DNA from: Escherichia coli
Lineage (GTDB): Bacteria; Pseudomonadota; Gammaproteobacteria; Enterobacterales; Enterobacteriaceae
Assembly (NCBI RefSeq): GCF_009931435.1
Contig: NZ_CP043415.1
DNA: 64,000 bases
Reading direction: 5' to 3' (one strand)
The position numbers and the translations under genes were made by a program. A model generated the notes under the pieces. It was not told where the DNA came from. It saw only the letters and a program-made list of their open reading frames with translations, and searched no databases. How positions within the stretch are numbered: the stretch's first letter is position 1; every line of letters begins with the position of its first letter. Positions 18,700-20,916 of the stretch are shown here, in pieces.

Positions 18700-19040
18700 A
18701 GTGTGAAAATAGGGCTGGTTGATAACCCGAAGGCAGTTGTGTTGAAGAATAACAACGGGAAAGTCGTGTTTAACACAGGATTCCTGTTGCTGGCCGACTA
18801 CTGTGACTTCCTGCCACGGGGCTACCGTTCGCGGCAGGGCCAGAATCAGAGGTAAGGTCGAGCAGATGATGAAATATATCTCACAGAGAGTTTTTTTGTC
18901 CCGTACTGCAGGCTCGACAGCTTCACTCATGTCAATCAACAACTGGAACAATGCATAGCCGATGTGGCTGACAACGGGAGCTTCACCAGTTCAAATAAAC
19001 GTCGGAACAGCGCTTTGAGCTGGAGCAGGAACATCTGCAG
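18700..19040 (+). pseudogene. IS21-family IstA 3' remnant, degraded copy A
   Basis: 18807-19040 is ~85% identical to 20610-20841; contains stops and frameshifts. Confidence 0.45.
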
Positions 19041-19396
19041 TGAGCGTGTTACGGAAGCAGTTCAAGTCCTCGCACATTTTTAAGTAGCAAAAGCGGTTCT
19101 TTGGTTACACCCTGCTTACGGGAAAGGCTGGAGGAGGGATGGTATACTGCACGACAAAGTCTTGCCCCTAAATCAGTAATGCCAAGATGATTTACTACGA
19201 TAAAGGGCGTCAAATCGTGCAGGCGTTCGGCTACTTTTTTATCTCGGGCTGCAAATTCAGGCTCATCACAGATGATAACGAGCATTATTTTTTATCGTGC
19301 AGGAGCATGACCCTGCCGGAGATATAACAGGTCAGTCATTTGATCTTACCCAGCAATAGTGGACACGCGGCTAAGTGAGTAAACTCTCAGTCAGAG

Positions 19397-19705
19397 GTGA
19401 CTCACATGACAAAAACAGTATCAACCAGTAAAAAACCCCGTAAACAGCATTCGCCTGAATTTCGCAGTGAAGCCCTGAAGCTTGCTGAACGCATCGGTGT
19501 TACTGCCGCAGCCCGTGAACTCAGCCTGTATGAATCACAGCTCTACAACTGGCGCAGTAAACAGCAAAATCAGCAGACGTCTTCTGAACGTGAACTGGAG
19601 ATGTCTACCGAGATTGCACGTCTCAAACGCCAGCTGGCAGAACGGGATGAAGAGCTGGCTATCCTCCAAAAGGCCGCGACATACTTCGCGAAGCGCCTGA
19701 AATGA
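19397..19705 (+). CDS. IS3 transposase OrfA
   Basis: 102 aa, [52 protein letters not shown]. Confidence 0.9.
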
Positions 19706-20568
19706 AGTATGTCTTTATTGAAAAACATCAGGCTGAGTTCAGCATCAAAGCAATGTGCCGCGTGCTCCGGGTGGCCCGCAGCGGCTGGTATACGTGGTGT
19801 CAGCGGCGGACAAGGATAAGCACGCGTCAGCAGTTCCGCCAACACTGCGACAGCGTTGTCCTCGCGGCTTTTACCCGGTCAAAACAGCGTTACGGTGCCC
19901 CACGCCTGACGGATGAACTGCGTGCTCAGGGTTACCCCTTTAACGTAAAAACCGTGGCGGCAAGCCTGCTCCGTCAGGGACTGAGGGCAAAGGCCTCCCG
20001 GAAGTTCAGCCCGGTCAGCTACCGCGCACACGGCCTGCCTGTGTCAGAAAATCTGTTGGAGCAGGATTTTTACGCCAGTGGCCCGAACCAGAAGTGGGCA
20101 GGAGACATCACGTACTTACGTACAGATGAAGGCTGGCTGTATCTGGCAGTGGTCATTGACCTGTGGTCACGTGCCGTTATTGGCTGGTCAATGTCGCCAC
20201 GCATGACGGCGCAACTGGCCTGCGATGCCCTGCAGATGGCGCTGTGGCGGCGTAAGAGGCCCCGGAACGTTATCGTTCACACGGACCGTGGAGGCCAGTA
20301 CTGTTCAGCAGATTATCAGGCGCAACTGAAGCGGCATAATCTGCGTGGAAGTATGAGCGCAAAAGGTTGCTGCTACGATAATGCCTGCGTGGAAAGCTTC
20401 TTTCATTCGCTGAAAGTGGAATGTATCCATGGAGAACACTTTATCAGCCGGGAAATAATGCGGGCAACGGTGTTTAATTATATCGAATGTGATTACAATC
20501 GGTGGCGGCGGCACAGTTGGTGTGGCGGCCTCAGTCCGGAACAATTTGAAAACCAGAACCTCGCTTAG
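19702..20568 (+). CDS. IS3 transposase OrfB (produced as OrfAB by -1 frameshift)
   Basis: 288 aa with the DDE region ...[10 protein letters not shown]...[17 protein letters not shown]. Confidence 0.9.
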
Positions 20569-20598
20569 GCCTGTGTCCATATTACGTGGGTAGGATCA

Positions 20599-20916
20599 GA
20601 TCACTATAACTTCCTGCCACGGGCATGCCGTCCACGCAGGGCCAGAACAAAAGGTAAGGTTGAGCGGATGGTGAAATACCTCAAGGAGAACTTCTTCATC
20701 CAGTACCGCAGGTTCGACAGCTTCACTCATGTTAATCAACAACTGGAGCAATGGATAGCCGATGTGGCTGACGAACGGGAACTTCGCCAGTTCAAAGAAA
20801 CGCCGGAACAGCGCTTCGTGCTGGAGCAGGAACATCTGCAGCCGTTACCGGATACGGATGTCGATACCAGTTACTTTGACATCCGCCATGTGTCTAGGGA
20901 CAGCTATATCGAGTAA
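20599..20916 (+). pseudogene. IS21-family IstA C-terminal fragment, copy B
   Basis: [20 protein letters not shown]... matches the Ist[13 protein letters not shown] region; begins directly at the IS3 right end. Confidence 0.55.

Follow-up and report, generated by a model that had tools for sequence, protein, structure and literature searches.

A missing IS3 target duplication between cnf2 and cdtA on an Escherichia coli Vir-type plasmid: the very probable scar of an IS3-adjacent deletion

A deletion that starts exactly at the end of an IS element, spares the element itself and removes one copy of its target duplication is a classical IS-adjacent deletion. For IS3, transposase-promoted adjacent deletions have been reported by Sekine, Eisaki & Ohtsubo 1994 (as cited in PMC8860574) and by Kanai et al. 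2022 (PMC8860574), the dependence of such deletions on the IS3 transposase having been shown on test plasmids (PMC8860574). In an IS-free host, plasmids were obtained from which only sequence beside the IRL had been deleted, with IS3 preserved and an endpoint homology of at most 6 bp (PMC8860574). According to a 2024 analysis, the main causes of a missing target duplication are adjacent deletion and recombination between IS copies; for IS150, a member of the IS3 family, it described insertion first and adjacent deletion afterwards (PMC11708052).

The event analysed here, in the window (the whole 64-kb stretch of DNA that was examined), resembles the described IS3-adjacent deletions in that IS3 is intact, the deletion runs exactly from the IRL with a variable reach into the flank, homology between the endpoints is essentially absent and the target duplication has been lost on one side (PMC8860574). 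It differs from them in being a natural event on a virulence plasmid that was reconstructed from sister plasmids, and in that its dependence on the transposase is presumed. The succession of a duplication-making insertion and an IS-flush deletion without duplication is also that of IS150 in the E. coli long-term evolution experiment (PMC11708052); those events were chromosomal and time-resolved by sampled generations, whereas the order in the window was deduced from extant empty, occupied and deleted plasmids. The type of event is therefore an already known kind of IS-adjacent deletion. More specifically, the missing target duplication of the window IS3 is very probably the scar of an ordinary 2.8-kb IS3-adjacent deletion that followed a simple insertion.

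The IS3 element and its flanks

The window comes from an E. coli virulence plasmid of the IncF group and the Vir type (cnf2 / cdt-III), in which the IS3 element and the istA repeats around it were placed in the cnf2-cdtA intergenic region (Table 1). Direct reading of the element ends revealed that IS3 starts with TGATCTTACCC... and finishes with ...GGGTAGGATCA, within imperfect terminal inverted repeats of approximately 39 bp (19341-19379 and 20560-20598) that begin with TGATC and end with GATCA. Its two reading frames overlap, with the HTH domain located on orfA and the DDE/rve domain on orfB, and the element is identical at 1258/1258 positions to the 'IS3-like element IS3 family transposase' of CP057960.1. 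Only one IS3 copy was present in the window.

The triplets directly outside the element are ATT on the left (19338-19340) and GAT on the right, so that IS3 is indeed intact and devoid of a target duplication, as the initial annotation had stated, and realignment of the IS3 termini did not reveal any matching 3-bp duplication in the window. Because the same insertion in CP057960.1 is flanked by GAT on both sides, the absence of the duplication is a secondary loss and no argument against the identity of the element as IS3. A second, diverged IS3-family fragment of the locus was found at window 14537-15021, where 485 bp in the orientation of IS3 match its 3′ end (20113-20598) at 90% identity; this remnant stops about 100 bp before cnf2 begins.

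Table 1. Features of the cnf2-cdtA region, in window coordinates unless another record is named
Feature	Position	Strand	Remarks
cnf2	15128-18172		1014 aa; just upstream of the IS3/istA-repeat region
Remnant A, decayed IS21-family istA fragment	18511-19040	+	codons 116-289; contains repeat copy A (18800-19040)
Segment U, (Fe-S)-binding protein gene fragment	19041-19340	-	right edge 19340 = left deletion breakpoint
Deletion scar	19340/19341		2,787 bp (CP057960.1 40615-43401) missing, flush with IS3 left end
IS3, intact	19341-20598	+	1258 bp
IS3 orfA	19406-19705	+	Pfam HTH_Tnp_1, E = 5.7e-10
IS3 orfB	19702-20568	+	Pfam rve, E = 5.6e-28; also rve_2 and HTH_21
GAT	20599-20601	+	surviving right copy of the original 3-bp target duplication
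Remnant B, 3′ part	20599-20913	+	IS21 istA codons ~209-313, open frame; Pfam rve_3
Repeat copy B	20603-20841	+	within remnant B
Tail C	20842-20913	+	72 bp, end of remnant B
cdtABC, type III	from about 21900		just downstream of the IS3/istA-repeat region
AraC-family gene	11484-12221 of the CP057960.1 locus excerpt (L004); CP057960.1 41486-42220		absent from the window

The two istA remnants

The intact IS21 of NZ_CP147552.1, with an istA of 390 aa followed by istB, served as the yardstick for the sequences on either side of IS3, and its IstA matched NCBIfam transpos_IS21 with E = 8e-85. A repeat search in the window revealed four in-register pieces with 79-91% identity and a spacing of 1800-1803, which together make up a direct repeat of 241 nt (copy A) versus 239 nt (copy B), about 85% identical. 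When the GAC/GAT triplets are counted in, the repeat extends over 18796-19040 and 20599-20841. In a blastn comparison of the A and B pair against the sister plasmid, identity again amounted to about 85% over 242 columns, and because of the associated E value of 2e-64 the repeat cannot be attributed to chance. The initial annotation had recognized its approximate identity, along with stops in copy A and an open copy B; copy A indeed has a stop and is out of frame, and copy B reads through. Its extent proved to be slightly longer than annotated, and its assignment to the 3′ end of istA was mistaken, the repeat corresponding to codons 210-289 of the 390-codon IS21 gene.

Remnant A, which extends beyond the repeat, is 86.6% (blastn) to 88.3% (mafft) identical to the reference istA, from which it differs by 61 mismatches over all codon positions (16/18/27), three stop codons and four indel events, a pattern that is the signature of long neutral decay. 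In PLSDB, 26 records contained remnant A at at least 90% identity, the other 668 matches being the common IS21 at 80-90%. No intact close relative of remnant A was found in PLSDB, and the three listed records with at least 90% identity were without transposase annotation.

Remnant B, when completed with its 5′ half from sister plasmids, is 97.6% identical to the IS21 istA over 553 nt, free of gaps and stops. It spans codons 129-313 in those plasmids and codons 209-313 in the window, where the 5′ part (codons 129-209; Pfam rve), located upstream of IS3 in CP057960.1, has been deleted. Tail C has five mismatches to intact IS21 in 72 nt and is intermediate between type A and type B. Neither A nor B is a complete IS21-family element, as only partial istA sequence was found and istB and the terminal ends were not present.

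Since A is decayed (86.6-88.3% identity to IS21) and B is open (97.6%), the two stem from separate IS21-family insertions that differ greatly in age, and are not a duplication. In the undeleted plasmid they lie about 4.3 kb apart. The A/B repeats were not made by IS3; they pre-existed and are independent of the rearrangement. The two istA fragments should consequently be annotated as separate pseudogene remnants and not be read as one interrupted gene. Elsewhere in the window, at ~6185-7986, an apparently intact IS100 (IS21 family; istA/istB) was mapped from the CP057960.1 annotation (record 27459-29260), and this element has no DNA-level similarity to remnants A and B.

The deleted 2,787 bp and the history of the locus

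Plasmid pRHB08-C16_2 (CP057960.1) corresponds to the 64-kb window over the whole length with 6 SNPs. Window 1-19340 equals CP057960.1 21275-40614 with two mismatches and no gaps, while window 19340-64000 equals CP057960.1 43401-88097 with four mismatches and three small gaps, the 2,787 bp between both parts being the single large difference. In pRHB08-C16_2, direct reading revealed IS3 inside a contiguous remnant B, in the arrangement ...CTGGCCGAT, IS3, GATCACTATAAC..., with a perfect GAT/GAT duplication. Plasmid pBCE049-1 (NZ_CP042247.1) in turn represents the empty site, with remnant B uninterrupted and a single GAT, so that the un-rearranged arrangement that the initial annotation had proposed to look for in related plasmids does exist. 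A further seven PLSDB plasmids (H2-H7 and H10) yielded the same two-piece match pattern as pRHB08-C16_2 and, judged by that pattern and not by individually read flanks, appear to have its arrangement.

One endpoint of the deletion thus lies exactly at the terminus of an IS3 that is 100% intact, and a progenitor with the same IS3 at the same site is represented by CP057960.1. Microhomology at the breakpoint amounts to 1 nt (T), by which the position of the breakpoint is ambiguous. The junction between U and IS3 was found in 0 of 72,556 PLSDB records and in 0 of 5,426 complete E. coli genomes; because this junction is unique and the window differs from pRHB08-C16_2 by only 6 SNPs in 64 kb, the comparison points to a recent, private event.

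Some smaller differences from pRHB08-C16_2 were also noted. At window 39852, within traD (- strand, ORF 39573-41771), the window has 36 bp fewer, equal to four copies of CGGCTGTTG, which makes the Gln-Pro-rich (QQP) C-terminal repeat of TraD 12 residues (four units) shorter. Single-nucleotide indels were located at window 21874, about 40 nt upstream of the cdtA start, and at window 40735.

To the left of the scar, segment U and the next 193 bp of the sister plasmids are 84-86% identical to '(Fe-S)-binding protein' genes of STEC plasmids, and the homology therefore runs through the breakpoint. A query of 1,165 bp spanning this left breakpoint was covered for at least 80% in 16 PLSDB plasmids, as one contiguous (Fe-S)-gene remnant. 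For the 78-aa ORF in U, searches of Pfam and NCBIfam gave nothing usable. The junction between A and U was also found in a cnf2 locus about 3% diverged (NZ_CP128257.1), and is therefore old.

Lost with the deletion were the remainder of the (Fe-S) fragment, an AT-rich stretch containing an AraC-family gene, remnant B codons 129-209 and the left GAT. This DNA was absent from the rest of the window, where it was sought as possibly moved instead of lost. The AraC-family regulator gene, located between cnf2 and cdtA, encodes 245 aa with Pfam HTH_18 and HTH_AraC domains, and in NCBIfam showed sub-threshold similarity only, to HilD, GadX and YdeO. In NZ_AP024124.1, an internally deleted IS3 with an AAG duplication is located directly after the stop codon of this gene.

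These observations fit a history of three steps. Long ago, two IS21-family elements would have left truncated istA remnants (A old; B younger, from IS21 proper) between cnf2 and cdtA, with about 2.8 kb between A and B holding the (Fe-S)-protein gene fragment and the AraC-family regulator gene. IS3 then inserted into remnant B at GAT by simple insertion, duplicating this triplet. Finally, in the lineage of the window, the 2,787 bp directly left of IS3 were deleted with the element kept intact. The AraC-family gene was lost in this way, as were the left GAT and the 5′ part of remnant B, and the left end of IS3 was joined to the (Fe-S) gene fragment, from which the flanking ATT stems. The second and third steps are shown by the comparison with sister plasmids. 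The reverse order is not credible, because an insertion would then need to restore a perfect duplication and at the same time make both the IS21 remnant and the (Fe-S) remnant contiguous again. The suggestion in the initial annotation of a rearrangement in place of a simple insertion is therefore borne out to the extent that an IS3-associated rearrangement removed the duplication, while the original IS3 event, as pRHB08-C16_2 and pBCE049-1 reveal, was a simple insertion with a GAT duplication.

Provided that this deletion history is right, the third step was most likely a transposase-made adjacent deletion, in which the left end of IS3 attacked a nearby target on the same molecule; we infer the role of the transposase from the geometry alone. 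The same product could have arisen in two steps, if a second IS3 had inserted in the same orientation at ATT (19338-19340) and a RecA-dependent deletion between both IS3 copies had then removed one of them together with the 2.8 kb. This route, documented in general terms (PMC11708052), would yield exactly the observed hybrid flanks ATT...GAT, a single IS with flanks from two insertion sites being what recombination between directly repeated IS copies leaves behind. Moreover, IS3 has independently inserted into the same intergenic region in NZ_AP024124.1 (same orientation, AAG/AAG duplication, internal deletion) and in NZ_CP128257.1 (inverted, at the site that corresponds to window 19146). However, the junction of the two-copy intermediate (the IS3 right end followed by ATT and CTCTTCC..., i.e. 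ATTCTCTTCC) was absent from PLSDB and from the 5,426 complete E. coli genomes, and the route invokes two events where one suffices. The window IS3 is also without foreign SNPs, although a second copy derived from this very IS3 would not have brought any either. Both routes, in one step or in two, lead to an identical product and are not separable by sequence; we regard the two-step route as rather unlikely overall and, once the deletion history is accepted, as a tentative option over which the one-step route is favoured.

Explanations outside this history are far less probable. An assembly artefact would mean that the wrong flank was joined to a multi-copy IS3 in a plasmid that in reality is arranged like pRHB08-C16_2 or contains IS3 twice. 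It might be suspected from the median of three places at which IS3 occurs per E. coli genome and from a breakpoint exactly at a repeat edge, which has the look of a repeat-induced misjoin. It is nevertheless very improbable, as 2.8 kb of unique sequence would need to have gone missing amid an otherwise collinear 64-kb match to the sister plasmid. A single IS3 at the locus would leave no ambiguity in the left flank, and natural IS-flush deletions are common (PMC8860574, PMC11708052). Even less plausible is an IS-independent illegitimate deletion (slippage or end-joining) that ended at the IS3 terminus by chance: such deletions do occur at this locus, given that CP057029.1 is without 618 bp running across the IS3 left end into the element, but an endpoint within 1 nt of the IS terminus would be a roughly 1-in-1000 coincidence for this 2.8-kb interval, and the microhomology is 1 nt only. 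Least likely of all is that two old elements of the IS21 family recombined, as the initial annotation had put forward, and that IS3 lay at the crossover. The remnants are genuine homeologous direct repeats that do recombine in plasmids pVir68 and pRM13752, yet both persist unchimerised in the window (remnant A is 99.95% identical to the A-type copy of pVir68 and remnant B 99.97% identical to B of CP057960.1), and neither repeat contains the novel junction, which is located between the (Fe-S) gene fragment and the IS3 terminus.

Recombinants and instability in related plasmids

Plasmid pVir68 (NC_012944.1) belongs to the same plasmid family as the window and shares cnf2, remnant A, tail C and cdtABC with it, but differs in having a single chimeric istA remnant and in being without U, the AraC-family gene, IS3 and copy B. 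In its remnant, all informative sites before the last 22-nt identity block are of type A, and the tail shared with B follows directly. Plasmid pRM13752 (NZ_CP051653.1) likewise has one remnant, which is of type A up to the first 23-nt identity block and of type B after it, and the AraC-family gene is also missing from this plasmid. By these patterns, pVir68 and pRM13752 are clean deletion products, each derived from the two-copy arrangement by a single crossover. For pVir68, the direction of the event is settled because of its chimeric pattern and the presence of the A-U junction in the approximately 3%-diverged lineage. We also considered pRM13752 as the ancestral single-copy state and rejected it, since the first ~57 nt of its remnant contain the stop and substitutions of type A as well as a 6-nt insertion.

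Both crossovers between A and B were located in the terminal identity blocks (22-23 nt) of a homeologous repeat of ~530 bp, at pVir68 3601-3841 (L001) and pRM13752 ~4000-4030 (L013). Longer internal A/B identity blocks exist (about 28 and 41 nt), and two terminal-block crossovers are not a statistically meaningful number. In CP057029.1 (L014, 4207/4208), the 618-bp deletion takes away the 5′ part of remnant B along with 323 bp from the start of IS3, and its right end lies beside a CCAAAAG stretch of IS3 orfA; three PLSDB records with this deletion were seen. The cnf2-cdtA region is therefore structurally unstable, with a conventional explanation for each variant.

For the window plasmid, this history explains the lack of a target duplication at its IS3, and its significance beyond annotation is little. 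It does provide a clean natural series on Vir plasmids, in which the empty site, the IS3 insertion, the adjacent deletion and a pair of homeologous recombinants are all represented. Biologically, the one relevant consequence is that the window plasmid, like pVir68, has lost an uncharacterised AraC-family gene between two toxin loci. The routes of this loss were an IS3-adjacent deletion in the window and, in the two recombinants, A x B crossovers, located at the 3′ edge of the repeat in the pVir68 lineage and at the 5′ edge in pRM13752. It is a speculative and, in our estimate, improbable reading that the cnf2-cdtIII intergenic region is a rearrangement hot spot from which the gene was lost at least three times by different routes, with selection perhaps underlying the recurrence. 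If, however, the recurrence were to reflect selection and not mere fragility, the AraC-family regulator could influence toxin expression or plasmid cost.
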